DNA from: an uncultured Chloroflexaceae bacterium
GTDB lineage: Bacteria; Chloroflexota; Chloroflexia; Chloroflexales; Chloroflexaceae
Assembly (NCBI GenBank): GCA_964410555.1
Contig: CAYPHM010000009.1
Span: 7,488 to 71,487 of the forward strand
Reading direction: 5' to 3'
DNA: 64,000 nucleotides
Each line of letters begins with the position of its first letter. The first letter of the stretch is position 1. Of the stretch, positions 2,633 through 50,647 are shown piece after piece. A program made the translations under genes and the position numbers. The notes beneath the pieces were generated by a model, which was not told the DNA's origin, made no database searches, and worked only from the letters and a program-made list of their open reading frames with translations.

Positions 2633-2661
2633 CCCCCGTTTCGGGGGCTTTTTTGTTTTTT
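2633..2661 (+). terminator. Rho-independent terminator after pnp
   Basis: CCCCCG-TTT-CGGGGG hairpin followed by CTTTTTTGTTTTTT. Confidence 0.7.
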
Positions 2662-2710
2662 GGGGATTTTTTCCTTGCTAAGGCGTGTGACCAGTAATTA
2701 CCCTTTTTTG

Positions 2711-2808
2711 CCCTCCATCCCCCATCCCCTGCCTTTTCCCACCGCGGAGAGAAGGGGAACCACGCACCAGGCATCCCCATCCCTAGCCCCTTTCCCCACC
2801 CGCCCTGG
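2711..2808. repeat. GC-rich modular interspersed repeat cluster (degenerate B-type units, C-rich strand on +)
   Basis: CCCCATCCCCTGCC..CCCACCGCGGAGAGAAGGGGAAC and CCCCATCCCTAGCCCC match the units seen at 12 other loci. Confidence 0.8.
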
Positions 2809-2898
2809 ATTACCTCATGTTCCTTTAGAGATTCGGGCAGAGCATGGTATAATCAGCCAAAGTGAATGTACAACATGTTGTCAAGGAGGACATAAATA

Positions 2899-10484: not shown

Positions 10485-12133
10485 CCATTTCAACAAACAA
10501 CCGATACCGTCTCATCCTTATCTTCATCCTCGTTACTGGCTTACTTGGGGCTTTGCTGGTTGGCTCTACCCAACAGGCTTGGGGGCAATCCCAGCTGGGC
10601 AAGCAGGTTAAAGGGGTTATCCAGGGAGATGTGACGTGGACGAAAGCAGAAAGCCCCTATATCCTCACGGACAGAACAACTATCCCCAATGGAAGCAGTC
10701 TGACCATTGAGCCTGGAGTTGTCGTGCAGGGACAGACAGAAACAGAACTCAAGGTCTTTGGGACACTCAAGGCGGTAGGGACAGTGACAGAGACGATTAC
10801 CTTTACGTCAGAGAGTGATAGTGGGCCAGATCAATGGTCAGGGTTGGTCATTGATGGCGGCTCTGGCGAACTGCGCCATACCATAATCCGCTATGCTGGT
10901 AATGTCAATAGCATAGACCTACGAAGCAATATCTCTGTGCGGAACAGTCCATCAGTACACATTGACCACAGTCTTATTACCCAAGAAGAGCATCGCGGTA
11001 CCATAACCTTAGATGTGATAGACTATGGGATGTACATTGAAAATAGTACCGTACACATCATCAACAGTAGCTTTATTGAAAATGGCAATTCTGCGGAAGA
11101 TGCAGCCGTATATACCACCGGTAATCGGATGATGCTGACGATGCAAAACAATATTTTTAGCAATAATAGCGTTAATCGGGTGGTTATTGACAGTGAGCAA
11201 TGGAAAACAAACGATATTACCCTTGAGCCACAAGAGGGATTGGAAGGGTATCAGCTTAACCAGTTCTTTACTATTACAGACAATATGACTATGACGATAG
11301 CCCCAGGCACAACGGTGATGGGCAGGAGTGTTGGCGGTATCAAAGTGCAAGGCAACCTTACCGCTATCGGGACAGCCACACAGCCGATCACCTTTACCAA
11401 AGCCCAGAGTAGCAGCGGATGGAGAGGGTTACTCTTTGATGGGTCAGAAGGGAAGGGGTCTGGTAGCCTCAAGTACGTGAGCGTTTGGCATGGCGGACAA
11501 CCCAACGGTACCCAACCGAGCAATATTGCGGTGGTAGATGTACAAGACCCTGCCTCTGTGCATATTGAGCAGAGCGATATTCGCCATGCGTATGCGCCCG
11601 GCGGTATCCCAAAGGGGACACCTGAACAGGGTATCTATGTGGAAAATAGTATTGTATCGGTAGATTCAACCTACTTCGGAAACAATGGGTCGTTGAATAA
11701 CGACAACACGATCTATGTGACGGGCAATGACACAGAATTCAGCTTGACCCGTTCTGAGATAGTCAACACATCGGAAAGCAAGTCTAACGAATCTGGTCCT
11801 CGTGGAGTGCTTATCAGTGGGGGGAAGGTCAACGTGTGGTGTACATCCTTTGAGATAAACAAGGGCAGTGGGGCTATCTATACCACCCGAAGCCTCAGCA
11901 CCACAGTTACCCATTCCAGTTTTATCAACAATCAATATGGGGTTGTTCATCGAGAGGGTCCCGCGGTGTTTGCCAAGTATAACTGGTGGAATAGTTCATC
12001 TGGTCCCTATACGGGTCGCCCCGGTATCAATGATGCCGTCAACGCCGTGGCAGGGAATGTGCTCTATGACCCCTGGCTCACCTCACGCCCAGATTGTTTG
12101 ATGGCAGTCTATCTACCATTGGTTCAGAGATAA
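10481..12133 (+). CDS. Secreted or membrane-anchored right-handed beta-helix repeat protein
   Basis: N-terminal hydrophobic anchor LILIFILVTGLLGALLVG. Two similar halves with repeated N-x-S/T-rich beta-helix-like turns. GTG start overlaps the upstream stop by 4 nt. Confidence 0.6.
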   Translation: MTISTNNRYRLILIFILVTGLLGALLVGSTQQAWGQSQLGKQVKGVIQGDVTWTKAESPYILTDRTTIPNGSSLTIEPGVVVQGQTETELKVFGTLKAVGTVTETITFTSESDSGPDQWSGLVIDGGSGELRHTIIRYAGNVNSIDLRSNISVRNSPSVHIDHSLITQEEHRGTITLDVIDYGMYIENSTVHIINSSFIENGNSAEDAAVYTTGNRMMLTMQNNIFSNNSVNRVVIDSEQWKTNDITLEPQEGLEGYQLNQFFTITDNMTMTIAPGTTVMGRSVGGIKVQGNLTAIGTATQPITFTKAQSSSGWRGLLFDGSEGKGSGSLKYVSVWHGGQPNGTQPSNIAVVDVQDPASVHIEQSDIRHAYAPGGIPKGTPEQGIYVENSIVSVDSTYFGNNGSLNNDNTIYVTGNDTEFSLTRSEIVNTSESKSNESGPRGVLISGGKVNVWCTSFEINKGSGAIYTTRSLSTTVTHSSFINNQYGVVHREGPAVFAKYNWWNSSSGPYTGRPGINDAVNAVAGNVLYDPWLTSRPDCLMAVYLPLVQR

Positions 12134-12868: not shown

Positions 12869-12942
12869 TCCCCCCATCCCCTCGCCCCGCGTCCCACCGC
12901 AGGGAGAAGGGGAACGCACACCGGGCAAGCCCCCATCCCCTT
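12869..12942. repeat. GC-rich modular repeat (B unit, C-rich strand on +)
   Basis: CCCCCATCCCCTCGCCCCGCGTCCCACCGCAGGGAGAAGGGGAAC, abutting the stop of the PAS/STAS gene. Confidence 0.85.
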
Positions 12943-14947
12943 AACCATTTTTGCTCATCGCATAGGCAATCCCCTTTTGCAAGCTGCCACGGGTAATAAT
13001 GTTGCTCAAGTCTACCCCCAAGCTCACTAGCGTTTGTGCCATAGACGGTCCAATGCCCGTAAGCATCACCTCTGCCCCAAGCAACCGCACCGCCTGCGCC
13101 GCCTGGATGAGCACATTGGCTACCTGGGTATCCACCACTTGCATACCGGTAATGTCAATGATAGCGAAGGCAGCATCATGGTTTGCCACCCCCTCAAGTA
13201 GTGTTTCCATAATCGTTTGGGCACGTCCACTATCTATGCTACCAATGAGCGGCATAATCACCACCTTGTCAGCAATGGGAATAAGCGGCGAGGAAAGCTC
13301 ACGGATAGCTGCCCGCTGCGCCTCTATTACCTGCTCTTGCAAGGCAGCATGTTCTTGGATTTGACGTTTCTGTTGGGATATATCGCGGATAACTCCCGCT
13401 ACCTCCTGCACCTCTCCTAGCTCATTGTGAATAGCAAACGCCGACATCACGCCAGGAAAGATGCTACCATCACTTCGTTTGTAGGAAAGTTCCCCCTGCC
13501 AAAAGGCATGTTCGATAACTTGCTGCATCAAACGTTGCATCTTTTCGGCAGGCTCGTTATAGAGATTGAGAAAACTGGTTCCTACCAGTTCGTCCCCATA
13601 GTCCATCATCACGCGATAGGCAGGGTTGGCGTAGGTTACTATTCCGTCAAGGTTTGCTACCCCAATGCCATCACCGGCATTTTCTACCAGCATTTTGAAG
13701 AGGCGGAGTTGATCTTCCGTTTGCTTGCGCTCGTTGATGTCGGTAATAGTCCCTGCCATCCGTATGGGATTTCCTGTTTCATCCCGCTTCGTGATCTTGC
13801 CACGAGACAAGAACCATACCCACTCGCCGGACTTGTGGCGCATACGAGCCTCACAAGCATGCTCATCTCTCGTGCCTTGCAAATACTCTTGAAATAGGTT
13901 GATGGTATCGGCTTGGTCATCAGGATGGATAATCTCTATCCATGTATCTGCAACCGGGGCGAGTTCTTCAGGAGCATAGCCGAGCATTTCAGCGTAGCGT
14001 GGGGAATAGTAGGCTTTATTGGTTACGAGATTGGTATCCCACGCCCCATCTTGGCTGCCTTCCAAGATATAGCGTAACCGCTCTTCCTGCTCGCGCACTT
14101 CATCCTCCAAGCGTTTGCGCTCGGTAATGTCTGCGGTAATACCGCCTAGTCCATAGATCGTACCTTCGGGGTCATACAAAGGAAACTTGGTGGAGATATA
14201 GGTTCTGTTACTCCCATCATCCTGGGGCAACGTTTCCTCTATCACCAAGATTTGCCCCGTAGCAAGCACCTGTTGGTCATTGGTACGGATAGCATCAACA
14301 GCATCTTTTTGGAAAAAGTCATAGTCGTTCTTGCCAATAATATTTTCAGGTTCACGCTGGAGTAGCTTGGCAAACTGGCGATTAGCTAGAATAAGCGTAC
14401 CTTCAGTATCTTTGGCATAGATGATAGATGGCGAGTTGTCTATGACATGCTGGAGCAACAATTGCTTGGATCGCAGTTCTTCTTCCACCCGGCGATATTC
14501 GGTAATATCAAGCACATACCCCTCATAGTGGGTAATTGTTCCCTCTTGGTCGCGGATGATGCGCGTATAGTCATATATCCAGCGTACATCCCCATCAGCA
14601 TGCACAAGGCGATAGGATTGTTCAAAACTCTTAGCCCCCGCCTCGCTATAGCCCTGTACCTCTGCTGCGACCCGTTCGAGGTCTTCTGGGTAGACTATCG
14701 AGACAAAGGGGATACGTCCACTGGTCAGGTCATCGGGGGTGTAGCCAAGTTGCTGCACATTGGGGGAAACAAAATCAATGGGACAACCGGCTGCAGCTAC
14801 CCAACGAAAAAGAATAATTGCGCCCCCTTCAAAGAGGGTCTGATGTTGGTATTCTGTTCGAGTACGGAGTTGTTGTTCTAGTTCTCCGATGCGTTGTTTG
14901 AGCGATTCATTTTCCTTTCGCAAGTGCTCATGTTCTGCATGGGACAT
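12941..14947 (-). CDS. Multi-PAS sensor protein with C-terminal RsbR-type STAS domain
   Basis: N-terminal coiled coil, then about four PAS-length repeats. The C-terminus is LIPIADKVVIMPLIGSIDSGRAQ..IIDITGMQVVDTQVA..LTGIGPSMAQTLV, typical of RsbR-like STAS. Confidence 0.85.
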   Translation of the reverse strand: MSHAEHEHLRKENESLKQRIGELEQQLRTRTEYQHQTLFEGGAIILFRWVAAAGCPIDFVSPNVQQLGYTPDDLTSGRIPFVSIVYPEDLERVAAEVQGYSEAGAKSFEQSYRLVHADGDVRWIYDYTRIIRDQEGTITHYEGYVLDITEYRRVEEELRSKQLLLQHVIDNSPSIIYAKDTEGTLILANRQFAKLLQREPENIIGKNDYDFFQKDAVDAIRTNDQQVLATGQILVIEETLPQDDGSNRTYISTKFPLYDPEGTIYGLGGITADITERKRLEDEVREQEERLRYILEGSQDGAWDTNLVTNKAYYSPRYAEMLGYAPEELAPVADTWIEIIHPDDQADTINLFQEYLQGTRDEHACEARMRHKSGEWVWFLSRGKITKRDETGNPIRMAGTITDINERKQTEDQLRLFKMLVENAGDGIGVANLDGIVTYANPAYRVMMDYGDELVGTSFLNLYNEPAEKMQRLMQQVIEHAFWQGELSYKRSDGSIFPGVMSAFAIHNELGEVQEVAGVIRDISQQKRQIQEHAALQEQVIEAQRAAIRELSSPLIPIADKVVIMPLIGSIDSGRAQTIMETLLEGVANHDAAFAIIDITGMQVVDTQVANVLIQAAQAVRLLGAEVMLTGIGPSMAQTLVSLGVDLSNIITRGSLQKGIAYAMSKNG

Positions 14948-15028: not shown

Positions 15029-15193
15029 GGGGCAAGCCCCCATCCCCTAGCCCTTTCCCCCACCATGGGGAGCAGGGGGTCCGTATTGAAAGCAAGGGAG
15101 CATGCTCCCTTGCTACCCCCCCCCGTCCAATCCTCCTTCTCCCCTCGGTGGGGGTAGGGGATGGGGAGGAGAGACGTTGCATGCAACGTCTCT
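15029..15193. repeat. GC-rich modular repeat cluster including two GCATGC-centred palindromes
   Basis: CCCCCATCCCCTAGCCC; 24-nt palindrome AGCAAGGGAGCATGCTCCCTTGCT (15091-15114); 24-nt palindrome AGAGACGTTGCATGCAACGTCTCT (15170-15193). Confidence 0.9.
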
Positions 15194-15234: not shown

Positions 15235-16452
15235 CTATGCCCCATAGATTCCCCGTTCCCACCGCGAAGCATGATACCTTCTCATGGAGACGGGTAAAGG
15301 CTCTCCCTCAACAGGATTTTGTGTGACCCACAAAGCACATTCCCAGGTCTGTCGGGCTATGACCTCTATATCTTGACTCCAAAACATCCCCGCCAATTCT
15401 CGTATGGGCAACTGGAGGATTGCCTCTCCTTGCGGGCTTAAAACAGCCAAATTCCCCCCCACTGAGGCGACTTGTTCATCGGTCAGATGTTGCTTACGGA
15501 AAATATCATGCACAAGGCGTTGCGGGACTTCGGATACCAGATCAACCTTTTGTAACGTGGGTTGCTCCCCTTTGCGGACATATTCCACTGCCCATACTGC
15601 CGGTCCTGCAGTTTTGGGGAGGGGCTTCATATCGGTAAACCAATCATACCAGTACATCCATGCTGTTTTCGAGCGACTAGTGGGATGGTGAAATCCCCAC
15701 AACCGCTGCGGCGTATCAAACGCCAAGTAGACTCCCCCAACGGCTGGACTATACGGATTTCGCTCCTGCCACCATCCAATCGCATAGGCTTCTATATCTC
15801 GTTGGGCTAGTAGCCCTTGCTCGTGGGCGAGATAATGCCACACGCGGTCAATATGGATGCTATGACTAGGCTGCCAGAAAATAGCCCCATTTGGCGTGGC
15901 TTGCACTTGTTCTAGCACATAGGGGGCGGGGCTTTTTTCGACGTGCTCTTCATACCTTTCCGGGTAGATAGTATAGCCACGGGTGGAAACATCTTCCATA
16001 GGGAACATCCGGGTGGGACCATACCCAATGGGACTGCCTGGCTCCAACGTTCCTATTGGGAGAAGAGCGCATTGTCGTTCTTTCTCATACCCAAACTTCA
16101 CTCCCTCAATAGCCCAGTATGCGGTGCATTCTTCGGGTGGCGGACGCAACCAGTGACCACGATTCTCGGTGAGCATCCATCCTTTTTGAAACTTCTTCAC
16201 GTAATAGTTGGAACGTGGGTAGGCAATGTATGCGGGACCTTCTCCAATACCTTCGCCCCAATTCCACACTTCCCACCAACCAATAACCCATAGACCACAT
16301 TGGCTTTTCCAACGATCTATTACTTCACCACTCGTTATGAGGATTTCATCTACACTAGCAGGTCGTTCAAGAACAAACGTGTGTTCATATTCAATAAGTG
16401 TTCCCAATTGCTTCTCCTTTGGCAAAGTTCTGTTTGGTATGGAGGTTCGCAC
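15235..16452 (-). CDS. Hypothetical Trp-rich protein (22 W in 405 aa)
   Basis: Long ORF with no family recognised. The start is uncertain: GTG 16452 lies 19 nt from AGGAGG, while TTG at 16407 lies 6 nt after AAGGAG. Confidence 0.55.
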   Translation of the reverse strand: MRTSIPNRTLPKEKQLGTLIEYEHTFVLERPASVDEILITSGEVIDRWKSQCGLWVIGWWEVWNWGEGIGEGPAYIAYPRSNYYVKKFQKGWMLTENRGHWLRPPPEECTAYWAIEGVKFGYEKERQCALLPIGTLEPGSPIGYGPTRMFPMEDVSTRGYTIYPERYEEHVEKSPAPYVLEQVQATPNGAIFWQPSHSIHIDRVWHYLAHEQGLLAQRDIEAYAIGWWQERNPYSPAVGGVYLAFDTPQRLWGFHHPTSRSKTAWMYWYDWFTDMKPLPKTAGPAVWAVEYVRKGEQPTLQKVDLVSEVPQRLVHDIFRKQHLTDEQVASVGGNLAVLSPQGEAILQLPIRELAGMFWSQDIEVIARQTWECALWVTQNPVEGEPLPVSMRRYHASRWERGIYGA

Positions 16453-16489: not shown

Positions 16490-16683
16490 TTATCCATAGT
16501 CTCCCCGTTCCCAACGCGATACGTGGTAGCGTCTAGCTGCGGCGGGGAATGGCTCCCCCGCAACGGGATTTTGTGTCACCCACAAAGCACATTCCCATGC
16601 ATGCCGAGCGATAGTATCGACATCTTGACTCCAAAAGATACCAGACAATTCCCGTATGGGCAACTGAAGGATGGACTGCCCAG
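16490..16683 (-). pseudogene. 3' remnant of a paralogue of the Trp-rich protein gene
   Basis: The minus strand reads ..GQSILQLPIRELSGIFWSQDVDTIARHAWECALWVTQNPVAGEPFPAAARRYHVSRWERGDYG*, matching the last ~65 aa of the 405-aa protein. An in-frame TGA lies just upstream and no 5' part is present. Confidence 0.75.
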
Positions 16684-16703: not shown

Positions 16704-17080
16704 TCCCCCCCCATCCCCTCGCCCCGCATCCCACCGCGGGGGGAAGGGGCTGTTAGGCTCCCCCTCGCCCTTTATGGGAGAGGGGGCAGGGGGAGAGGGT
16801 ATTCCGGGCAACCCCATCCCCTAGCCCCCTGTTGGTACCAGTGTTCCCGGTGGGATTGAGGAGGGAGAGGGTGTTCCGGGCAACCCCATCCCCTAGCCCC
16901 TTACCCCCGCTACGCGGGAGAAGGGGAACGAACACCGGGCGGCTCCCCCTCGCCCGAACGAGCCGCGAGTGAGCGGATGTATCCTTTGTATCCCCCTCGC
17001 CCTTTATGGGAGAAGGGGCAGGGGGAGAGGATAGGTAAAAAGGGCAAAAATTCTTTGATTGTGCGACTTTGCAATCACCC
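16704..17080. repeat. GC-rich modular repeat cluster (several B units, A unit, C module)
   Basis: CCCCATCCCCTAGCCCC occurs twice. CTCCCCCTCGCCCTTTATGGGAGAGGGGGCAGGGGGAG is followed by AAAAAGGGCAAAAATTCTTTGATTGTGCGACTTTGCAATCACCC. Confidence 0.9.
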
Positions 17081-17189: not shown

Positions 17190-18545
17190 CTACTCATCTA
17201 CAAAGAAGTACACGATAGATTTATTCCCGCTTGAAGTTCCCTCAAAAACGATAGTCCAGATACCTTCGGTCATGTCGCTGGTATCAAGGGGTAGATCGTA
17301 GACTGCACCAGTATCGCCAATATCCAGCGTTTCTCGTGTACCCATAACGCTGTCATCCGGGGCGGTAATCCAAAAGCCAACCTGCTCATTAGGCTTGAAA
17401 CCGTAGATGTCTATGACGATCTGGGTTCCCTGGCTCACGCATTTGGATGGGCGAATGTTGGCATTTACCGGGTCTGGTGTATCGGCACACGTCCCACTTG
17501 AGGTCGGCGGCGGTGAGGTGTTGGTGGTTTCTGACCCGGTACCTATAACGCGGAAATAGACCATAGACCGATTGCCGCTAGATGTCCCCTCAAAGATAAT
17601 GGACCAGAGACCAGCAGCCATACCGCTAGTGTCAAAGGGCATATCGTAGATTGCTCCTGTGTCTCCAATACTGACCGTATCCTGTGTCCCAACAATGTCT
17701 CCATCTGGGTCAGTAATCCAGAAGCCAACCTGCTCATCGGGTTTGAAGCCATAGATGTCTATAACAATCTCTTCCCCCTCATAGACACATTTGGCGGGGC
17801 GGATGTTGGCATTTACCGGGTCTGGCACGTCTGTACAGGGGTCTTCTTGTTGTTGAACCGGAGGTGTTCCGCCTCCATTCCCCTGCTCACGTTCTAGCCC
17901 CTCCTTGCCAAGTAAGCCAAGCAACACATGGTAGGGGGGATTATTCTCGGGGTGTAGTTCAAAGCGAGCACGCTCAAAGATCTGAACATCATAGGAAACC
18001 CCATCGGTGGTGTAAGTCAGCAAATCAGACAGGGGTTTGCCAAAGAGGGCGATGTTCTCTTGGATGCTATAGCCTGGTACCCCATCAAGTTCTAGCCCAT
18101 AGCTCTTGTAGCGTTGCAAAAACTCATCACACACATTCCAGCCGGTGTCAAAGTACACACAGCCGTTGATAGGGTCTTCTTTCATAGACAGGTCTACCCC
18201 TTCAGACTTAGCAAGTTCTGCTTCATCTGCTCCCAAACGCCCAAGCAACACGTCATAGGGGCGGGGGTTTTCGGGGTGAAGTTCTAGCCGATTTCGTTCA
18301 AACCACTGAACTTGGTAGGGTCCACCTTCGATGATCTCGGTACGTTGTGGGGTGATGGGGTACCCAAAGACTGCCAATCCTCCTTGATTATTCCAAAATT
18401 CACCGATGCGTCCTGAAATGCAATAGCCAGTTTCAGGAAAACATTGCTCACCTGACTGTGCTTGGGCAGAACGCTGGGGAAGAGCCGACAAAACCATACT
18501 GACCACCAACAAGACGATGTATGACCAACTGCGTAACGAACGCAT
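17190..18545 (-). CDS. Secreted protein with two pairs of internal repeats
   Basis: Signal peptide (..LSALPQRSAQAQS). Two N-terminal repeats end in FER.R.ELHPEN.PPY.VLLG.LG. Two ~100-aa C-terminal repeats start C.D.PDPVNANIRP.KC. Confidence 0.7.
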   Translation of the reverse strand: MRSLRSWSYIVLLVVSMVLSALPQRSAQAQSGEQCFPETGYCISGRIGEFWNNQGGLAVFGYPITPQRTEIIEGGPYQVQWFERNRLELHPENPRPYDVLLGRLGADEAELAKSEGVDLSMKEDPINGCVYFDTGWNVCDEFLQRYKSYGLELDGVPGYSIQENIALFGKPLSDLLTYTTDGVSYDVQIFERARFELHPENNPPYHVLLGLLGKEGLEREQGNGGGTPPVQQQEDPCTDVPDPVNANIRPAKCVYEGEEIVIDIYGFKPDEQVGFWITDPDGDIVGTQDTVSIGDTGAIYDMPFDTSGMAAGLWSIIFEGTSSGNRSMVYFRVIGTGSETTNTSPPPTSSGTCADTPDPVNANIRPSKCVSQGTQIVIDIYGFKPNEQVGFWITAPDDSVMGTRETLDIGDTGAVYDLPLDTSDMTEGIWTIVFEGTSSGNKSIVYFFVDE

Positions 18546-18680
18546 GCTACTACTCCTCTCATACTAGCTGACCCAATTGTTGCTATTCCATCATTTGTAC
18601 CTGAAACCACAGGGGCAATGTCTGGTTTGTCCCATTCCTTGTCCCTTCCCCGCAAACGGAGATGAGGATTATGGTTAGTT

Positions 18681-18810
18681 CCTCCTTGCCCTTTATGGCA
18701 GAGGGGGCAGGGGGAGCGGGAGTAAAAAAGGGTTTTAATGCTTATCATTGCGCGACTTTGCCATGCCCCTGGAACGCCGGCGGGACGTTGCATGCAACGT
18801 CCCGCCGGCG
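18681..18810. repeat. GC-rich repeat (A unit, C-like module) plus a 36-nt perfect palindrome
   Basis: CCTCCTTGCCCTTTATGGCAGAGGGGGCAGGGGGAGCGGGAG, then ..GCGCGACTTTGCCATGCCCC, then CGCCGGCGGGACGTTGCATGCAACGTCCCGCCGGCG (18775-18810). Confidence 0.9.
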
Positions 18811-18841: not shown

Positions 18842-19501
18842 TTATACGCCAAGTTTGCGCTTGAGTTCTTCCAATTCCGCATCTACGCCACTTTCCGCTT
18901 CCAGCTTGCGAAACTGATTTTCTAACGTATCGGTTTCTAGCTCGGCTAGGGCTTCAGCCTTTGCGAGACGGTCATCTACGCGGCTTTCGAGCATATCGAG
19001 CTTGTCCATTGCCGTGACCCTGCCCAAGTTGCGGGTGGTCTGTTGGAGAGTCTCTTGGGTCTTGGCACGGTTCTGCTTGGCGACAATGAGGTCACGGTGG
19101 GCTTTGGTCTCTGCCATGCGGGTCTCCAGGTTGGCGAGGGCTTCCTGGAGTAGGTCAACCTGTTCTGCTTGGGCAGTATACTGCCCTTCATACTGAGCAC
19201 GAACACGATCTGCTTGGTTTTTGCGTTGCAATGCCGCCTTTGCCAAATCTTCTTTGTCCGCACGCAGGGCTTGCTCGGCTTTGCCTTGCCACTTTTCTAC
19301 CTCCGCCTCATATTGGATTTTGCGCTGTTGCAGGCGGGTTTCATCTGCCATAGCCGAAGCGACCTCTGTTTTGGCAGCATAGTACTGGTCATTCAGTTGA
19401 CGCAGGTACTCATTAGCCATCTTCTCTGGGTCTTCGGCATTATCCAACAGATCGTTGATGTTAGCACTCAAGATGTCCTTAATACGACCAAGAAACGACA
19501 T
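18842..19501 (-). CDS. pspA: PspA/IM30 (Vipp1/LiaH) family protein, tandem copy 4 of 4 in transcription order
   Basis: MSFLGRIKDILSANINDLLDNAEDPEKMANEYLRQL.. plus coiled-coil heptads. The ATG at 19501 is preceded by GAAGGAG; the ORF track start at 19537 is probably too long. Confidence 0.9.
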   Translation of the reverse strand: MSFLGRIKDILSANINDLLDNAEDPEKMANEYLRQLNDQYYAAKTEVASAMADETRLQQRKIQYEAEVEKWQGKAEQALRADKEDLAKAALQRKNQADRVRAQYEGQYTAQAEQVDLLQEALANLETRMAETKAHRDLIVAKQNRAKTQETLQQTTRNLGRVTAMDKLDMLESRVDDRLAKAEALAELETDTLENQFRKLEAESGVDAELEELKRKLGV

Positions 19502-19541
19502 AGTTCTTCTCCTTCTATTATGTGGATACCAAACCAACTAC

Positions 19542-20183
19542 TCACACACCGAGCGAACGCTTCAACTCTTCCAACTCGGCATCAACCGCCGAATCCTCAT
19601 CTAGCTGTTGAAACTCGGATTCCAACGAGCTGGATTCTAGCTGTACTATTTGCTCCTTCTTCATTTGGGCGAACTCGTCCATAGCAGACTGTACGCCCAT
19701 AGATGCTGAAGTCCCACGTATTGCCTGCATGGTCTGCATACGGTGCTTCTTGACAACGGTGAAATCAATTAAGTCAAGACAGGCTTTGGTCTCACCTATC
19801 TGCATTTCTAGGGTTGCCAGTGCATCTTGCAGTTTGTCTACATGTTCACAATAGGCTTCATATCGCTGCGTGTACTGTTGGGCGAGACGTTCAGCATGTT
19901 TTTTGCGTTGCAATGCCTGCTTTGCCAAATCCTCTTTGCCAGCACGCAAGGTTTGCTCCGCTTTGCCTTGCCATCTTTCTACCTCCGCTTCATACTGGAC
20001 TTTGCGCTGTTGTAGGCGGGTTTCATCTGCCATAGCCGAAGCCACCTCTGTTTTGGCTTCATAATACTGCTCGTTTAGTTGGCGCAGGTACTCATTTGCC
20101 AACTTCTCTGGATCCTTAGCATTATCCAACAAATCGTTGATGTTAGTACTCAAGATGTCCTTAATACGACCAAAAAACGACAT
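19542..20183 (-). CDS. pspA: PspA/IM30 family protein, tandem copy 3 of 4 (mosaic)
   Basis: The N-terminal two thirds resemble copies at 18842 and 20914. The C-terminal ~75 aa resemble the copy at 20224 (..LESSSLESEFQQLDEDSAVDAELEELKRSLG). Confidence 0.88.
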   Translation of the reverse strand: MSFFGRIKDILSTNINDLLDNAKDPEKLANEYLRQLNEQYYEAKTEVASAMADETRLQQRKVQYEAEVERWQGKAEQTLRAGKEDLAKQALQRKKHAERLAQQYTQRYEAYCEHVDKLQDALATLEMQIGETKACLDLIDFTVVKKHRMQTMQAIRGTSASMGVQSAMDEFAQMKKEQIVQLESSSLESEFQQLDEDSAVDAELEELKRSLGV

Positions 20184-20223
20184 AGTTGTTCTTCTTACTA
20201 TAACTGGATACCAGACCGAACAC

Positions 20224-20883
20224 TTACAAACCGAGCGAACGCTTCAACTCTTCCAATTCGGCATCAACCGCCGAATCCTCGTCTAGCTGTTGAAATTCAG
20301 ACTCCAACGAGCTGGATTCTAGCTGCGCCATCGCTTCTGTTTGGGCGACCTGATGATCCACCCGCTGCTCCATCTGGTCGAGCTTGTCCATTGCAGACTT
20401 CCCACCCATCGCGGCTGAAGCCCCTCGTATTGCCTGCATCGTCTGCATGCGATTCTTCTTGGCAACGATAAGATCGCGGCGGGCTTGCGTTTCAGTTATC
20501 CGCGACTCCAGTAAGGCTAACGCTTCTTCCAAATCGTCTACCTGCTCGTCTTGTGCAGCATACTGCTTTTCATACTGTTCTGCAAGTTGACGGGCTTGGA
20601 GTTTTTGTTGCAACGCCTGCTTTGCCATATCTTCATTGCCATCACGCAGCGCAATCTCTGCCCGTCTTTGCCAGCGTTCTTTATCACTTTGAGCCGTGAT
20701 CATCTGCTGGTATAGGCGGCTTTCGTCTGCCATTGCCTGTGCCACCTGCGTCTTGGCTTCATAATACTGCTCGTTTAGTTGGCGCAGGTACTCATTTGCC
20801 ATCTTTTCCGGGTCTTCAGCTTTGGTAAGCATGTCGTTGACATTGGAACTGATAAGGTCTTTGACCCGTTCTAGGAGAGCCAT
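20224..20883 (-). CDS. pspA: PspA/IM30 family protein, tandem copy 2 of 4
   Basis: MALLERVKDLISSNVNDMLTKAEDPEKMANEYLRQLNEQYYEAK.. with a full-length PspA-type coiled coil. Confidence 0.9.
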   Translation of the reverse strand: MALLERVKDLISSNVNDMLTKAEDPEKMANEYLRQLNEQYYEAKTQVAQAMADESRLYQQMITAQSDKERWQRRAEIALRDGNEDMAKQALQQKLQARQLAEQYEKQYAAQDEQVDDLEEALALLESRITETQARRDLIVAKKNRMQTMQAIRGASAAMGGKSAMDKLDQMEQRVDHQVAQTEAMAQLESSSLESEFQQLDEDSAVDAELEELKRSLGL

Positions 20884-20913
20884 ACAGTCATGCTCCTTTC
20901 TTGCAAGGTTACG

Positions 20914-21573
20914 TTATATTCCCATACTACGTTTGAGTTCTGCCAGTTCTGAATCCACTCCAGAGGTCATCTCCATCTCACGAAACTGATTATCTAGTGT
21001 ATTCGACTCAAGCTCCGTCAATGCCTCGGCTTTGGCTAGACGATCATCTACCTTTTCCTCAAGCTGGTCGATTTTGTCCATTGCGGAGATTTTGCCCATG
21101 CTGTTGACGGTGGTTTGGAGAGATTCTTGGGTGCGGGCGCGGTTTTGCTTGGCGGTAATGAGGTCACGGCGAGCTTTGGTCTCACCTATCTGCGTTTCTA
21201 AGTTTGCCAGTGCATCTTGCAATTTGTCTACCTGATCAGACTGGGCTTCATATTGCTGCGTGTACTGCTGAGCGAGACGTTCGGCTTGTTTTTTGCGTTG
21301 TAGGGCTTGTTTTGCCAAGTCCTCTTTGCTAGATCGTAGGGCTTGCTCTGCCATGCCCTGATATTTCTCAAGCTCTTTTTCGGCTTCAACCATTTTTTGC
21401 TGAAGCCGGGTCTCGTCTGCCATTGCCTGTGCCACCTGAGTTTTCGCTTCATAATACTGCTGGTTCAGTTGGCGCAGGTATTCATTGGCCATTTTTTCTG
21501 GGTCTTCCGCTTTATCCAATGCATCATTGACATTCGCACTGAAAAAGTCTTTTATTCTTCCAAAGAACGACAT
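20914..21573 (-). CDS. pspA: PspA/IM30 family protein, tandem copy 1 of 4
   Basis: MSFFGRIKDFFSANVNDALDKAEDPEKMANEYLRQLNQQYYEAK.. RBS AAAGGAGG lies upstream. Confidence 0.9.
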   Translation of the reverse strand: MSFFGRIKDFFSANVNDALDKAEDPEKMANEYLRQLNQQYYEAKTQVAQAMADETRLQQKMVEAEKELEKYQGMAEQALRSSKEDLAKQALQRKKQAERLAQQYTQQYEAQSDQVDKLQDALANLETQIGETKARRDLITAKQNRARTQESLQTTVNSMGKISAMDKIDQLEEKVDDRLAKAEALTELESNTLDNQFREMEMTSGVDSELAELKRSMGI

Positions 21574-21795
21574 ACAAACAACCTCCTTTTAGGTCACTTC
21601 ATTGTGCAGCCTCTCTTGAAGATCATGTTTTGGGATGATAAATCATCGTGCTGTATAGCTGCATTACAGATACCATACTTTACCTTCATGAGTATTCTAG
21701 CATAGGACAGGGGTATTTGCATGGAGAATTTGTGGAGAAGTGAGTTCGTTGCCAGGGTCATAGCAAAGTCGCATAAGGAAGGGATTAGAGACGGT

Positions 21796-22613: not shown

Positions 22614-24164
22614 TTACGCTCGCACCACTGTCACCACCCGCCCGGTGGGGGTCGTTGCCTGTTCCGTTGTCGTGCGCTCGGCTATTCGTCCCTGGTCGCT
22701 CCGCTGGTCAAAGATGACAAGCCACCCCGTCTCCAGCGACAAGCCACTGAGGTATTTGTCCAGTTGCGCTAACCCTTGTGGCAGCGGGTCAGATTCCCTA
22801 TCTCGCCAGACCTTCAGTTCCAGCGCGAGAGCTTGGGTGCCATAGCGTACACACAAGTCCATGCGTCCACTGCCAATCGCATACTCCCGTTCTATCGTGC
22901 CGCCTGAGTTGACCACCCGATGCAAGAACGCCATCAGCACGAGGTGCGGGGCGATCTCGTGGTAGGAGGCAGTTCTGAGCAAGGGTTCGCCGTGCTGCCG
23001 CCAGAAAAGCAAAAAGGCTTCCAATAGTTTGTTGAAGTCTAGGTTGCCGTCAGGGGTGCGCCATGTATCCTGGATATGAGGCAGCGATGCTTGAGTCGTA
23101 TACGCCAATACTCGCGGTAAGACTTCTTGGTAGATAGGATTGGCAATCACTAATCCCCCCGCCTGATCCATACGGCACAGTCCAAGATTTAGCACAAACT
23201 TGATGTCATCGGTTGGGATGTCATCCAACGTTTGTCCTGCCAAGATCGGTTCTATCACCTGCTGTACCCGTGGCTCCCGCAGTCGCTCTGCCAAACTGTC
23301 GAGGTGGGTATCCTGCCGTTGGATGAGGATTTCTTTTGCCGCGTCTATATGCTCCGGTGTGATAGGCATAGTCGGGTCAGGGACGAGGTTTTCCACGACT
23401 TGTCGGGCGAGCGCATTGACTAACCAGGGCTGCCCCTGGGTGAGGTGAAATGCCCGTGCTACCGCTTCAGGGGTGAACACCTGCCCCGTATCTTCCGTGT
23501 GTTGCTGATAGAGCATCCCGACTTCCTCGTGGGTAAAGTTGCGGAGCGTGATAGATTCTACTTTGATGTTGAAGGGGCTAGAGGTATGCAACCTATCACT
23601 CCCCCCCGAAGCGACTTTGTAGTCGCGTACATCTCGTAAGCCAATGAGTGCCAACGACCACGGGAATGCATCGGGTCGTCGCGGATAGCCGTCACGCAAT
23701 TGGCGTAATACCGAGATGAGGGTCGTATTGCTCAAGGCATCTATTTCATCGAGAAAAATCACCAGTGGGCGGGGCAGGGCTTGCACCCAATGTTCTAAAG
23801 CGGTGCTAATCCCTGCTCCTTCTGATACTTGAGACCATTCAGGGGGGTAAAATTCTTGGGGGAGTTGCCATTTGGCTGCCGCACGCCACCGATTTAAGAT
23901 AGCAGCTTCTGCCTTGTCCACTTCATCATTGAAGGCTGCGCCAACTTCCATCGAAACGAAGACCGCAATATAGGTTCCCTCTGCGGTCAGTTCTTTGGCA
24001 AGCGACCACAATGCCGTGGTCTTACCCGTCTGTCGCGGGGCATGCAGTACAAAATACAGTTTTTGATCAATAAGCCGTTGCACCTGCGGCAGCCGAGCCA
24101 TAGGGGAAAGCATGTAGTGATCTTGGGGATTGCACGGTCCGGCGGTATTAAACCAACGTTTCAT
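22614..24164 (-). CDS. AAA-type ATPase with C-terminal PD-(D/E)XK-like motif, copy A
   Basis: Walker A HAPRQTGKTT, Walker B LVIFLDEID, C-terminal GRMDLCV..ALELKV. The ATG at 24164 matches the start of copy B. Confidence 0.8.
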   Translation of the reverse strand: MKRWFNTAGPCNPQDHYMLSPMARLPQVQRLIDQKLYFVLHAPRQTGKTTALWSLAKELTAEGTYIAVFVSMEVGAAFNDEVDKAEAAILNRWRAAAKWQLPQEFYPPEWSQVSEGAGISTALEHWVQALPRPLVIFLDEIDALSNTTLISVLRQLRDGYPRRPDAFPWSLALIGLRDVRDYKVASGGSDRLHTSSPFNIKVESITLRNFTHEEVGMLYQQHTEDTGQVFTPEAVARAFHLTQGQPWLVNALARQVVENLVPDPTMPITPEHIDAAKEILIQRQDTHLDSLAERLREPRVQQVIEPILAGQTLDDIPTDDIKFVLNLGLCRMDQAGGLVIANPIYQEVLPRVLAYTTQASLPHIQDTWRTPDGNLDFNKLLEAFLLFWRQHGEPLLRTASYHEIAPHLVLMAFLHRVVNSGGTIEREYAIGSGRMDLCVRYGTQALALELKVWRDRESDPLPQGLAQLDKYLSGLSLETGWLVIFDQRSDQGRIAERTTTEQATTPTGRVVTVVRA

Positions 24165-24251
24165 GGGATGGTCTCCTTGTGTGTTTCCTTCCATACCTAA
24201 TTTCTTCTCTGTATAGTACCATATAATCAGCAAAAATGAACGATTCCTAGA

Positions 24252-25628
24252 CTAATCACGTCCCGACTCGCGTTCATCATCCACTTCATCTTCATCCCCA
24301 TCACCTGGATAGATGATACGTACCATATCTACGGCAAACCCACTCACGCTTTCAACGATAAAGAGAGTCTGGGCGATTGCTACCTGATCACCTGGAATCG
24401 CCGGGCGACCAAGCAAACTCACCACTAACCCCCCAACGGTATCTACATCCGGGAGTTCTTCATCTCCATCATCTGGCAATATCCCAAGCGCAGCATCATC
24501 CAAATCATCAAGCATTAAATCACCACGAGCAAAAAACATCCCTGGCTCAACCTCATAGAGTAAGGGTTGCTCTACCTCGTCAAACTCATCATGCACTTCC
24601 CCTACTACCTCTTCCACAACATCCTCCAACGTTACAACCCCCGCTGTCCCCCCATATTCATCAAAGACCAGTGCCATATGAATGTGGGAATGTTTGAATG
24701 CTGCCAGTAATCGGTCTACCATCATCGCTTCTGGCACTGCTGGCATATGACGTAAAAGGGACTTCAAGTCCATACTGTCTGGTTGTTCAAGCTGCTGCTG
24801 CACAAAGTCTTTCACGAGAAGCAAGCCAACAATATGGTCTAAGTCATGCTCATAGACGGGGAATCTGCTGTAAGGGGAGGTAGCGATATAGTCGCGTAGC
24901 TCTTGCTCCCCTATATCCACAGGGATTGCCTCAATACGAGGGCGTGGGGTCATCACCTGCCCCACCCGTCGCTCGCTGAGGTCAAAAATATTTTGGATAA
25001 TGCGCTGTTCATCATCACTCAGCATCCCCCCCTTGTGGCTCTCCATCACGACCAATGCCAACTCTTCTGGTGAATAGAGCCGACGATGGCTTTCTATCCG
25101 GGGGATATTCAACACCCGCAATACCGTATTGCCAAAGCCGTTTAGCAAGATGATCAATGGGAGAAAGACCAACCGCATAAAGCGCAAAAACCCATTCACC
25201 CCTAGCATTATGCGCTCAGGATGATGCAACGCAAGCGATTTTGGTATCACATTGCCGACTACCACAAGCAGCAAGGTCATCACCGAGAGGGCAACAAAGA
25301 ACCCTGCCCCCCAAGCAACCGAGGGTGTCCATGCGCCCCACTGTACAAACACCTTTTGTAGATACTCAGCGATACTATAGACTCCAACCATACCCAGGGC
25401 AAGACTTGCTAGGGTAATACCAAACTGTGCAGCAGTAATGAACGAATCCATCTCCACCGAGTCGTCAAGGAGCATGACCATACGCTCGATATGTGGGTCT
25501 CCTTTTTCCATCATTTCTTTGAGACGTGATGGACGTGTCCCAATAAGCGAAAATTCCGCAGCAACAAATATCCCGTGTATGGTCAACAAAATAGCGACCA
25601 TTACCAGCGGGATGAGCATGATGCTCAT
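24252..25628 (-). CDS. CNNM/DUF21 membrane domain, CBS pair and CorC_HlyC domain protein (hemolysin/CorC family)
   Basis: N-terminal four TM segments with AEFSLIG, a CBS pair region, and a C-terminal transporter-associated domain with an acidic tail. Confidence 0.85.
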   Translation of the reverse strand: MSIMLIPLVMVAILLTIHGIFVAAEFSLIGTRPSRLKEMMEKGDPHIERMVMLLDDSVEMDSFITAAQFGITLASLALGMVGVYSIAEYLQKVFVQWGAWTPSVAWGAGFFVALSVMTLLLVVVGNVIPKSLALHHPERIMLGVNGFLRFMRLVFLPLIILLNGFGNTVLRVLNIPRIESHRRLYSPEELALVVMESHKGGMLSDDEQRIIQNIFDLSERRVGQVMTPRPRIEAIPVDIGEQELRDYIATSPYSRFPVYEHDLDHIVGLLLVKDFVQQQLEQPDSMDLKSLLRHMPAVPEAMMVDRLLAAFKHSHIHMALVFDEYGGTAGVVTLEDVVEEVVGEVHDEFDEVEQPLLYEVEPGMFFARGDLMLDDLDDAALGILPDDGDEELPDVDTVGGLVVSLLGRPAIPGDQVAIAQTLFIVESVSGFAVDMVRIIYPGDGDEDEVDDERESGRD

Positions 25629-26968
25629 GTATCTTCTCCATCTGCATCTTGTACAAGCGGTGTATTGTCCGTTGTAGAGAAATTGAGCGATACTTCTACC
25701 ACTGTTGGACCGTTGACCGCCTCCACTCGAAGAGTAACATCTTCCAAAACGACCTCATCCCCCACCTGTGGCAATCGCCCAAGTATAGCCATAGTCAACC
25801 CCCCTAGCGTATTGACCTCTTCGTCTGGCAATTTCAACCCAAATCGTTCATTGACATCTACTATGCGAGATTCGCCTTGCAGACGCAACCAACCATCACG
25901 CCCTAGTGTCATAAAGGTATTGCACGTATCAAATTCATCTTGCAATTCGCCGAACATCTCTTCCAGCAAATCAGAAACCGTTATCATTCCCGCTGTACCA
26001 CCAAATTCATCAAGCACTACCGCAATGTAATTTCCCTCTTGTTTCAGTTGATTCCATACCGCTAAGACGGGCATGGTTTCATGAACATAGGATACAGAAC
26101 GGAGTACATCTTGAACGTAGGTATTGTTTTCAGTATGCAACCGGAAGAGGTCTTTGATATGTATGCTCCCGACTACAGTATCTATCGTATCGGTGTAGAG
26201 CGGGATACGTGATCGCCCCGAATCTGTTGCCAAAACCAGTAAGTCATGAAGCGAAGTCTTTACTGAAGCAGCAACCATGCGAGTACGCGGGACCATCACC
26301 CTCGTTGCAGTAAGTTCTCCTACACGCAAGACATTGTGCAACAACTGGCGTTCGTCTGCCTCTATCAATCCCCAACGAACACTCTCCATAGCCAGTTGCT
26401 CTATTTCCTCTGGTGAAAGGATGTGTCGTCGTGTAGCGGGGGTAATCCCAACGATACCAAGTAAGAAGGCAGCAATGCCATTACACACCGCAATAGCCGG
26501 GCGAAACAGAGCCAACGACCATCGCATAAGTGGCACCGAAAAAAAGGCTACCCCTTCCACATAGCGAAGAGCCAATGACTTGGGGAGCAACTCTCCTATC
26601 ACCATCTGCAAAAGGGTCAGGAGCACCAACAGTCCAATGGTTATCAGCACGTATATTCCTAGTATATGGTCCCAACCAGCAGCAAGCAGGGTTGGATGGA
26701 GATAGTGGACAACCACCCACTGCCCATAAAAGCCAAGCACCAAACTGGAAATTGTGACCCCTATTTGGCTGGCGGCAATGTAGGTGTCAAGTCGATGTGG
26801 ATTGCTAATGATGGTTTTGAGAAACTTTGCAGCTGGACTTTCCGATGCTCGGTACTGAGCAAGCCTGGCAGGTTGGGCATGAATGGTCGAAAACTCTGCT
26901 GCTACATACAACCCATTGACAAAGATTAACACGGAGATTAGCGCAATAATAACCAGCGCAGTTTCCAT
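25625..26968 (-). CDS. CNNM/DUF21-CBS-CorC_HlyC protein, tandem paralogue
   Basis: Same architecture (AAEFSTIH, CBS pair, CorC C-terminal domain). Its stop overlaps the downstream start by 4 nt. Confidence 0.85.
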   Translation of the reverse strand: METALVIIALISVLIFVNGLYVAAEFSTIHAQPARLAQYRASESPAAKFLKTIISNPHRLDTYIAASQIGVTISSLVLGFYGQWVVVHYLHPTLLAAGWDHILGIYVLITIGLLVLLTLLQMVIGELLPKSLALRYVEGVAFFSVPLMRWSLALFRPAIAVCNGIAAFLLGIVGITPATRRHILSPEEIEQLAMESVRWGLIEADERQLLHNVLRVGELTATRVMVPRTRMVAASVKTSLHDLLVLATDSGRSRIPLYTDTIDTVVGSIHIKDLFRLHTENNTYVQDVLRSVSYVHETMPVLAVWNQLKQEGNYIAVVLDEFGGTAGMITVSDLLEEMFGELQDEFDTCNTFMTLGRDGWLRLQGESRIVDVNERFGLKLPDEEVNTLGGLTMAILGRLPQVGDEVVLEDVTLRVEAVNGPTVVEVSLNFSTTDNTPLVQDADGEDT

Positions 26969-27217: not shown

Positions 27218-28768
27218 ATGAAACGTTGGTTTAATACCGCCGGACCGTGCAATCCCGAAGATCACTACATGCTCTCCCCTATGGCTCGGCTGCCGCAGGT
27301 GCAACGGCTTATTGATCAAAAACTGTATTTTGTACTGCATGCCCCGCGACAGACGGGTAAGACCACGGCATTGTGGTCGCTTGCCAAAGAACTGACCGCA
27401 GAGGGAACCTATATCGCTGCGTTGGTCTCCATGGAAGTTGGCGCAGCCTTTCCTGATTCTATTGACAAGGCAGAGTATGCCATTTTGGGCAGTTGGTATG
27501 GCTCGCTAACCGTTGAATTACCGCCTGAATACCACCCTCCCAAATGGACAGATACCGGAGAGGGCTTTGGTATCAGTATGGCATTACAGACATGGACGCA
27601 GCAAGCATCACGTCCGCTGGTGCTCTTTCTCGACGAGATAGATGCGCTGAGTAACATGACCCTCATCTCAGTATTACGCCAATTGCGGGATGGCTACCGG
27701 TTACGTCCCCAAGCGTTCCCGTGGTCGTTGGCACTCATTGGCTTACGAGATGTGCGCGACTACAAAGTCGCTTCGGGGGGGAGTGATAGGTTGCATACCT
27801 CTAGCCCCTTCAACATCAAAGTAGAATCTATCACGCTCCGCAACTTTACCCACGAGGAAGTCGGGATGCTCTATCAGCAACACACGGAAGATACGGGGCA
27901 GGTGTTCACCCCTGAAGCGGTAGCACGGGCATTTCACCTCACCCAGGGGCAGCCCTGGTTAGTCAATGCGCTCGCCCGACAAGTCGTGGAAAACCTCGTC
28001 CCTGACCCGACTATGCCTATCACACCGGAGCATATAGACGCGGCAAAAGAAATCCTCATCCAACGGCAGGATACCCACCTCGACAGTTTGGCAGAGCGAC
28101 TGCGGGAGCCACGGGTACAGCAGGTGATAGAACCGATCTTGGCAGGACAAACGTTGGATGACATCCCAACCGATGACATCAAGTTTGTGCTAAATCTTGG
28201 ACTGTGCCGTATGGATCAGGCGGGGGGATTAGTGATTGCCAATCCTATCTACCAAGAAGTCTTACCGCGAGTATTGGCGTATACGACTCAAGCATCGCTG
28301 CCTCATATCCAGGATACATGGCGCACCCCTGACGGCAACCTAGACTTCAACAAACTATTGGAAGCCTTTTTGCTTTTCTGGCGGCAGCACGGCGAACCCT
28401 TGCTCAGAACTGCCTCCTACCACGAGATCGCCCCGCACCTCGTGCTGATGGCGTTCTTGCATCGGGTGGTCAACTCAGGCGGCACGATAGAACGGGAGTA
28501 TGCGATTGGCAGTGGACGCATGGACTTGTGTGTACGCTATGGCACCCAAGCTCTCGCGCTGGAACTGAAGGTCTGGCGAGATAGGGAATCTGACCCGCTG
28601 CCACAAGGGTTAGCGCAACTGGACAAATACCTCAGTGGCTTGTCGCTGGAGACGGGGTGGCTTGTCATCTTTGACCAGCGGAGCGACCAGGGACGAATAG
28701 CCGAGCGCACGACAACGGAACAGGCAACGACCCCTACCGGGCGGGTGGTGACAGTGGTGCGAGCGTGA
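27218..28768 (+). CDS. AAA-type ATPase with C-terminal PD-(D/E)XK-like motif, copy B (inverted duplicate of copy A)
   Basis: The last ~345 aa are identical to copy A. The N-terminal ~65 aa are near identical and residues ~67-175 are diverged. Confidence 0.8.
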   Translation: MKRWFNTAGPCNPEDHYMLSPMARLPQVQRLIDQKLYFVLHAPRQTGKTTALWSLAKELTAEGTYIAALVSMEVGAAFPDSIDKAEYAILGSWYGSLTVELPPEYHPPKWTDTGEGFGISMALQTWTQQASRPLVLFLDEIDALSNMTLISVLRQLRDGYRLRPQAFPWSLALIGLRDVRDYKVASGGSDRLHTSSPFNIKVESITLRNFTHEEVGMLYQQHTEDTGQVFTPEAVARAFHLTQGQPWLVNALARQVVENLVPDPTMPITPEHIDAAKEILIQRQDTHLDSLAERLREPRVQQVIEPILAGQTLDDIPTDDIKFVLNLGLCRMDQAGGLVIANPIYQEVLPRVLAYTTQASLPHIQDTWRTPDGNLDFNKLLEAFLLFWRQHGEPLLRTASYHEIAPHLVLMAFLHRVVNSGGTIEREYAIGSGRMDLCVRYGTQALALELKVWRDRESDPLPQGLAQLDKYLSGLSLETGWLVIFDQRSDQGRIAERTTTEQATTPTGRVVTVVRA

Positions 28769-50538: not shown

Positions 50539-50647
50539 GTTACATCTTGCTTTACCTATCTATTATACCACGCCTTTTCTGCTGTTGCTTTGTATTGTAT
50601 GGGTGTGGCAGATATTTTTCCCTCGTCATAAAAGGGAACTATAGCCC

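Follow-up and report, generated by a model that had tools for sequence, protein, structure and literature searches.

The 64,000-nucleotide (nt) stretch analysed here – the window – comes from an uncultured Chloroflexaceae bacterium (contig CAYPHM010000009.1, assembly GCA_964410555.1) and carries a tandem array of four pspA genes, which we call A, B, C and D. Our data make it probable that the array is a pspA operon without partner genes, in which three conserved paralogues – A, B and D – are accompanied by a mosaic copy, C, that is a by-product. A first-pass annotation, made from the letters of the DNA, had described four paralogues. That description holds for A, B and D, which are conserved and under selection; it does not hold for C, a mosaic found on this contig only, with relaxed constraint and a degraded Shine-Dalgarno (SD) sequence.

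All four genes lie on the minus strand. In the six-frame list of open reading frames (ORFs) of the window, A (20914–21573) is the first gene, followed by B (20224–20883), C (19542–20183) and finally D (18842–19501). A, B and D encode 219 amino acids (aa) each – D as counted from its ATG – and C, which bears a 9-nt insertion and a 27-nt deletion, encodes 213. The intergenic distances are 30 nt between A and B (between 20914 and 20883), 40 nt between B and C (20184–20223; GTGTTCGGTCTGGTATCC...TAAGAAGAACAACT) and 40 nt between C and D (19502–19541). Shared direction, coordinates, lengths of 213–219 aa and spacing of 30–40 nt all agree with what the first-pass annotation reported.

The four products are members of the PspA/IM30 family, within the ESCRT-III superfamily, as had been proposed. 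A Pfam profile search matched PF04012 (PspA_IM30) with E-values of 2e-44 (A), 2e-38 (B), 4e-32 (C) and 7e-41 (D); bit scores were 112–152 against a gathering cutoff of 33.9, and the alignments ran from profile position 2 or 3 to positions 202–217 of 220. Because all four copies exceed the gathering score over approximately the whole profile, chance is excluded. They are not equivalogs of E. coli PspA or of LiaH: scores of 117–143 bits against TIGR02977 (E. coli PspA equivalog) and of 48–88 bits against NF045984 (B. subtilis LiaH equivalog) fall below the NCBIfam cutoffs of 243 and 380, respectively. Protein identity to A is 58% for B, 65% for C and 70% for D, with B and D aligning to A free of gaps.

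Comparison with solved structures gave the same assignment. Residues 1–217 of A align to cryo-electron microscopy chains of Nostoc punctiforme Vipp1/PspA (6zvr and 8qbw, E ~1e-33), the closest solved relative being Nostoc punctiforme Vipp1 at 38% identity. An AlphaFold2 model of A predicts helices alpha0 (residues 3–21), alpha1 (25–80), alpha2/3 (84–158), alpha4 (164–190) and alpha5 (193–216). The hairpin of E. coli PspA superposes on this model with a root-mean-square deviation of 1.0 Å over 120 columns, and the top 17 Foldseek matches to it are Vipp1/PspA proteins, with CHMP1B, Snf7 and CdvB at lower rank. The Vipp1-type C-terminal extension (alpha6) is absent from the four proteins, which stop at 213–219 aa; the alignment of A to the 258-aa Vipp1 ends at residue 217 in both sequences. 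At the N-terminus, residues 2–20 have a hydrophobic moment of 0.40–0.48 (0.44 in E. coli PspA), with a shuffle p of just 0.03–0.08, and alpha0 is predicted as a helix at residues 3–21 in A and C. The N-terminal motif that had been attributed to every copy is present in A, C and D; B deviates from it over its first eight residues (MALLERVKD) and retains the rest (KAEDPEKMANEYLRQL).

The absence of classical Psp and Lia partners, also noted at first reading, was borne out. We scanned with Pfam the 41 ORFs of at least 130 aa that are likely genes of the 64-kb window; the unscanned ORFs of this size nearly all overlap them on another frame or strand. In these 41 ORFs there was no PspB, PspC, PspF, LiaI/F/S/R, Toastrack, Band-7, PspAA or Vps4 domain. 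With 222 nt upstream and 296 nt downstream, the gaps that flank the array are too short for even a small partner gene, and no conserved partner stands beside pspA in ~80 Chloroflexales loci.

Evidence that A, B and D are distinct and long-lived came from related genomes, the closest of which are uncultured Chloroflexaceae metagenome-assembled genomes (MAGs). We ran a hidden Markov model made from the four window copies over all fetched Chloroflexales loci, labelled L001 and so on. Most Chloroflexales – Chloroflexus, Oscillochloris, Chloroploca, Viridilinea and Roseiflexus – have one pspA at this locus. True two-gene arrays occur in L005, L006 and L064, and true three-gene arrays in L001, L002 and L081; L004 shows two genes on a contig that ends just past the second. 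Among the loci fetched, four genes were seen in the window alone. A neighbour-joining tree places all copies in one Chloroflexales PspA clade, not in separate PspA and Vipp1 clades, and resolves three orthologue groups in constant order: A-type genes first, B-type second (window B with the second genes of L001, L002, L004, L005, L006, L064 and L081) and D-type third (window D with the third genes of L001, L002 and L081). Conservation of the array in relatives, which the first-pass annotation had proposed to check, extends to A–B(–D) orthologues in the same order in Chloroflexaceae MAGs, but not to C, which is absent from L001 and L081, the two nearest relatives. Equivalent arrays that were common in related genomes and already characterised would have counted against the first-pass reading; this applies by half, as relatives do have two- and three-gene arrays, but none is characterised. 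Two further loci hold a single D-type pspA (L003, 6141–6797; L077, ~10110–10661, where the copy is apparently N-terminally truncated); array size in this clade therefore shrinks as well as grows.

In comparison with L001 and L081, the synonymous divergence (dS) of A, B and D is 0.18–0.30, and the ratio of non-synonymous to synonymous divergence (dN/dS) is 0.02–0.045 (0.045 for A against its L001 orthologue, 0.036 for B and 0.02 for D). Between paralogues, synonymous differences have reached or come close to saturation (proportion of synonymous differences, pS, 0.70–0.82), and the duplications are therefore old. A, B and D are thus old, individually maintained paralogues under strong purifying selection. 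At the 74 near-invariant positions – those with ≥95% conservation across 87 further Chloroflexales PspAs – A and D show no departures; B, the most divergent of the three, shows six, and C 16. The sole notable difference in charge per helix concerns alpha5, which is acidic in B (net charge -7, versus -3 in A and D). Over nt 61–120 identity is 82–88% between paralogues within a genome, versus 78–80% between window and L002 orthologues; for a stretch so short, in which the protein is highly conserved, this is only suggestive of gene conversion among A, B and D.

That A, B and D have long been kept together in one order speaks for roles that are not redundant, whether in mixed polymers or in separate polymers of differing properties. 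One specific version of the operon account – not an alternative to it – is that A, B and D, perhaps with C, co-assemble into mixed ESCRT-III-like filaments in which each would have a distinct structural role, for example nucleating, curvature-changing or capping, by analogy with archaeal CdvB/B1/B2 and with the A- and B-type ESCRT-III proteins of Asgard archaea and eukaryotes. Hetero-oligomeric assemblies, an idea already raised by the first-pass annotation, are compatible with the apparent co-transcription of the genes and with the long retention of diverged copies in fixed order; the different alpha5 charge of B-type and A/D-type proteins also speaks for them. So does a review according to which bacteria usually carry one PspA, mixed ESCRT-III-like filaments being possible in fewer than 10% of lineages, those with duplications (PMC7619361). 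Yet A, B and D show no paralogue-specific interface signature, the scanned ORFs contain no Vps4-like remodelling ATPase, and PspA and Vipp1 readily homopolymerise. We therefore put mixed filaments forward tentatively, and think them somewhat unlikely. Bolder still, and in our judgement improbable, is the proposal that A–B–D is a multi-subunit bacterial ESCRT-III-like polymer – the first PspA-only heteropolymer, in a filamentous phototroph without Psp partners or Vps4 – with C as a domain-swap subunit. Were it true, C would unite a D-type alpha0/alpha1 hairpin arm and an A-type alpha2/3 segment with a shortened alpha4 and an acidic alpha5 of B type, and would serve to bridge polymers made by the other paralogues or to cap them; the growth from one to two, three and four genes across related MAGs would then record subunit complexity evolving in bacterial ESCRT-III.

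The array might instead supply more PspA under chronic membrane stress, as in a hypersaline mat, its copies being interchangeable. Higher dosage is usually reached through tandem amplification, C attests to recombinational activity in the array, and the L002 MAG stems from hypersaline mats of the Salar de Atacama (study ERP107533; PMC7872239). But dosage amplifications are typically young and near-identical, whereas A, B and D are 58–70% identical in protein and saturated, or nearly so, at synonymous sites. Each moreover has its own orthologues in several species with the low dN/dS given above, which fits maintained distinct genes. Amplification for dosage is, on this evidence, distinctly unlikely.

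Signals at either end of the array point to transcription as a unit. Upstream of A lies a putative promoter, the extended -10 element TGCTAGAAT (21694–21702, minus strand), a conserved motif from which transcription would start near 21687 and yield a 5′ untranslated region (UTR) of ~113 nt. The pattern TATGCTA[GC]AAT is kept upstream of the first pspA gene in seven of the eight aligned clade loci (the window and L001 to L006), and the ~220 nt proximal to A are ~95% identical to those of L001 and L081. The match to TGNTANAAT upstream of A is the only one in or near the array. Elsewhere in the window, extended -10 motifs (TGGTATAAT) occur at 2845–2853, upstream of the EF-G gene, and at 50562–50570, upstream of a STAS-domain gene; these examples suggest that the host does use TGNTANAAT as a type of promoter. 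An Rfam scan of the whole window gave no hits, so that the conservation of the 5′ UTR is not accounted for by any riboswitch or leader family; a tRNA scan of the window gave no hits either. Between the nucleoside-phosphorylase gene and the pspA promoter and leader, L001 (895–1160) and L081 (1883–2150) have ~270 nt of additional, partly GC-rich and repeat-like DNA that is lacking in the window (at 21796) and in the Logan contig L082.

Beyond D, 32 nt past its stop codon, stands a perfect 16-bp GC-rich hairpin (18775–18810, minus strand). The 86-nt stretch that contains it has a minimum free energy of -46.9 kcal/mol (z = -4.45); the hairpin is without a T-run, and a terminator scan gave no flag there. 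It is likely to be an operon terminator or an RNA-stabilising element. It is also a member of a repeated palindrome family: GACGTTGCATGCAACGTC is found at 15173–15190 and 18784–18801, each time just 3′ of a minus-strand gene, with 0.02 occurrences expected by chance. GC-rich palindromic intergenic repeats resembling repetitive extragenic palindromes occupy 15037–15190, 16708–17033 and 18680–18810, and TCCCCCTCGCCCTTTATGGGAGAGGGGGCAGGGGGAGAGGG is present three times.

From one conserved promoter, spacers of 30–40 nt and a single terminal hairpin we infer one polycistronic transcript and, with it, a single operon of A, B, C and D, in line with the operon-like arrangement first described. Each gene had been credited with an SD sequence of its own: A has AAGGAGG and both B and D have AAGGAG, but that of C is weak, AAGAAG, versus AAGGAG in the homologous spacers of relatives. 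The proposal that the copies are condition-specific isoforms, each expressed under a different stress, draws on the existence of diverged copies and on an SD strength that varies by copy and could tune their ratios. At the transcriptional level it is disfavoured, since sequence scans of the coding strand turned up nothing resembling a terminator or promoter within the array, the short spacers included, and since a single conserved promoter precedes the first gene throughout the clade, with one hairpin at the end; we regard it as very unlikely.

C is a mosaic. In a sliding-window comparison of nucleotide identity its 5′ end resembles D (87–95%), its middle part A (85–88%) and its 3′ end B (up to 97%), the breakpoints falling at ~nt 222–252 and ~nt 389–426. 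Counting as informative those sites at which C matches exactly one other copy, 117 of 138 fit a D|A|B partition, and the donor switches 39 times along the gene where 87 switches are expected – a value reached in none of 10,000 permutations. In the neighbour-joining tree C attaches near the B group. L001 and L081 have A–B–D without C, and their shared flanking genes are 89–96% identical to the window in nucleotide sequence. Both spacers that flank C resemble the single B–D spacer of L001 and L081, yet differ from each other: the B–C and C–D spacers appear to be two copies of an ancestral B–D spacer, the second with an intact SD (GAAGGAGAA). A segment of L001 that spans the 3′ end of B, the spacer and the 5′ end of D (2636–3082) aligns twice on the window. 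The duplicated spacer and the doubly aligned segment are both predicted by an unequal crossover between D and B, which would give A–B–[D5′::B3′]–D. The A-like patch in C needs an additional gene-conversion event.

Changes polarised with L002 as outgroup place 26 non-synonymous and 21 synonymous substitutions on the C branch (dN/dS ~0.33), against two and 13 on the donor branches (~0.04); by this measure C is under relaxed constraint. Through two in-frame indels C has gained 3 residues in alpha3 and lost 9 in alpha4, and the conserved K167, L171, A182 and A184 in the alpha4 region are substituted. AlphaFold2 predicts the hairpin and alpha5 of C, with residues 157–195 (alpha4) as coil at a predicted local distance difference test (pLDDT) score of ~30; the alpha4 of the A control reaches just ~50. 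C probably lacks a regular alpha4. It is best seen as weakly translated, if at all, with a role as a modified subunit possible.

The integrity of the contig at C was itself a concern. Among the resident copies, C matches B exactly over at most 49 nt, D over at most 29 nt and A over at most 21 nt; the 49-nt block (B nt 83–131) is common to B and C only and is, alone, just marginally improbable. A Logan contig from SRR7048223 – an independent assembly – is 100% identical to the window over 1,874 nt and ends at B nt 112, the last B-unique 31-mer ahead of the 49-nt block, a k of 31 being assumed for Logan assemblies. That the contig stops there therefore supports a second sequence with the 5′ context of C in SRR7048223. 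Searches for C elsewhere yielded a best non-self match of just 62% identity in a collection of 5.8 billion protein clusters, nothing in an exact-product look-up, and nothing when two C-specific DNA patterns were run against the JGI metagenome collection. An assembly chimera, the real genome having the three-gene A–B–D of L001 and L081, would accord with the lack of C on any other contig or protein record searched, with a source contig that was assembled from short metagenome reads and contains internal repeats, and with the three genes of the nearest relatives, but is highly improbable given such short exact matches, at least 47 private substitutions polarised to the C branch, two in-frame indels that leave the frame intact, two flanking spacers unlike each other, and a Logan assembly that breaks exactly where a 31-mer shared by B and C would branch the graph. 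A simple splice of A, B and D by the assembler was likewise rejected: exact matches of at most 49 nt, private changes, in-frame indels and the Logan break point all oppose it.

The account that we favour, of a partner-less operon with three conserved paralogues and a mosaic, runs as follows. The operon would be chromosomal, in an uncultured filamentous Chloroflexaceae bacterium, and the extended -10 element TGCTAGAAT would drive a single transcript of all four genes that runs as far as the hairpin beyond D. A, B and D, each of which is predicted to keep the amphipathic alpha0 and the alpha1–alpha5 architecture of the ESCRT-III type, would be made together and, as PspA-type polymers, would bind to the cytoplasmic membrane and either stabilise or remodel it. 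PspA would be sensor and effector at once, without partners of the PspBC, PspF or Lia type; such a double role has been suggested in a review for monocistronic pspA (PMC7619361). An unequal crossover between D and B would have made a D5′::B3′ hybrid between B and D and doubled the B–D spacer, and gene conversion would then have given C its A-derived patch. Evolving later under relaxed constraint, C would have lost a regular alpha4 and a good SD, and would now be at best a weakly expressed modified subunit, possibly heading for loss.

Several points weigh against this account. Segments of C differ from their donors by a dS of 0.47–0.86, above the divergence of 0.18–0.30 between the window and L001; given these values, a simple story of recent crossover is incomplete. 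Either C would predate the split between the window and L001, with later loss from L001 and L081, or it would have come from a somewhat diverged donor or relative. C may also be functional, and not decaying, for its dN/dS of 0.33 is well below 1. Only two positions are fixed within the A, B and D types and differ between them, which is no clear signature of specialisation, and the confidence of the AlphaFold2 monomer is low in alpha4 and alpha5 even for A (pLDDT ~50). Promoter and terminator are both read from sequence, and internal promoters may lie inside the coding sequence. Finally, the analysis covers a single window, and the rest of the genome may hold partner genes or more copies of pspA.

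The genomic setting is chromosomal: the window encodes PNPase, EF-G, RNase J, FtsK, DNA polymerase I and a PuhE-like DUF3623 gene. We rejected a location of the array on a mobile element or defence island, since the window holds the housekeeping genes for PNPase, EF-G, RNase J, FtsK and Pol I. The upstream neighbour of the array is a uridine-phosphorylase-like PNP_UDP_1 gene. Downstream is a gene for 451 aa (17190–18545) without a Pfam or NCBIfam match, which stands beside the array in L001, L081 and L002 too; its product looks secreted, judging by its hydrophobic N-terminus alone, and the gene contains an internal duplication (17205–17477 versus 17553–17825, 74% nt identity). In the ~80 Chloroflexales loci, a single pspA usually follows RsmG- and NadD-like genes and precedes a convergent thymidine-kinase-like gene; these neighbours were assigned by visual inspection of example sequences.

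An NTPase gene near the array (22614–24233, minus strand) matches AAA_16 and AAA_35 below cutoffs, with no other Pfam match at E ≤0.001 and no NCBIfam model. As a Vps4 analogue this AAA-type NTPase was rejected: it has neither MIT nor Vps4_C, and its adjacency to the array is conserved in L081 only. Together with a divergently oriented paralogue, likewise AAA_16/AAA_35-like and without an NCBIfam model (27218–28768, plus strand), it brackets two overlapping tandem genes for CNNM-CBS-CorC transporters (24252–25628 and 25625–26968). STAS-domain proteins are encoded at 12941–14947 and 49621–50538, one of them with multiple PAS domains (RsbR-like, of stressosome type); both are possible general-stress signalling components that share the window with the array. 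The window also contains a Type ISP restriction-modification enzyme of 1,024 aa (33752–36826) with N6_Mtase, Eco57I, ISP coupler and Type_ISP_C domains, and a 184-nt direct repeat of 78% identity (15242–15425 versus 16494–16677). The 3′ end of an unannotated 405-aa ORF (15235–16452) recurs in the repeat-rich intergenic region upstream of that ORF.

Multi-copy and tandem pspA genes are already documented; the array is uncommon but has precedent, and its novelty is modest. Ravi et al. (2024) described adjacent PspA dyads and triads in cyanobacteria, ascribed to tandem duplication and linked to oligomeric complexes (PMC11237479). Popp et al. (2022) reported PspA duplications in 16 phyla, with eight PspA-domain proteins in Aneurinibacillus tyrosinisolvens (PMC9239133), and a preprint gives one to three PspA copies in magnetotactic Deltaproteobacteria. 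New here are the lineage – Chloroflexaceae – a tight PspA-only operon of three conserved paralogues without alpha6, and its traceable growth to four genes, a mosaic among them. Three long-conserved and apparently co-transcribed paralogues without accessory proteins would make a compact natural system in which to test PspA heteropolymers, and C offers a natural chimera in which the modules of hairpin, alpha2/3 and alpha5 have been exchanged between paralogues. The locus is, in addition, a clean, datable example of the growth of a tandem array via unequal crossover and gene conversion. In other respects this is an ordinary gene-family expansion, with canonical proteins.

Of the known systems, the cyanobacterial PspA/Vipp1 dyads and triads (PMC11237479) share with the window side-by-side PF04012 genes, tandem duplication and a phototrophic host, and a link with oligomeric complexes that stabilise membranes has been proposed for them. 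They differ in that the window copies are without alpha6, belong to a single PspA clade, number four including a mosaic, and come from a Chloroflexaceae lineage. The Proteobacterial Psp system (pspABCDE with pspF) and the Firmicute LiaIH-LiaFSR system have, like the window, a PspA/IM30 effector with an amphipathic alpha0 and a coiled-coil hairpin; here, however, no partner domain is found in the scanned ORFs, and there are several copies of the effector instead of one. In genomes with many PspA proteins (PMC9239133) the family likewise extends beyond one or two copies without a full Psp network. The tight operon and the stepwise growth traceable across MAGs set the window apart from these, the source being silent on tandem arrangement there. 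The ESCRT-III systems of archaea and eukaryotes (CdvB/B1/B2, Asgard ESCRT-IIIA/B and the CHMPs) resemble the array as diverged paralogues of the same superfamily that are encoded together, and CHMP1B, Snf7 and CdvB match the predicted fold of A, if at lower rank. The array differs from them in that no Vps4-type ATPase, CdvA or ESCRT-I/II is seen among the scanned ORFs, that its heteropolymers are hypothetical, and that by sequence its proteins belong to the PspA/Vipp1 branch and not to that of Snf7.

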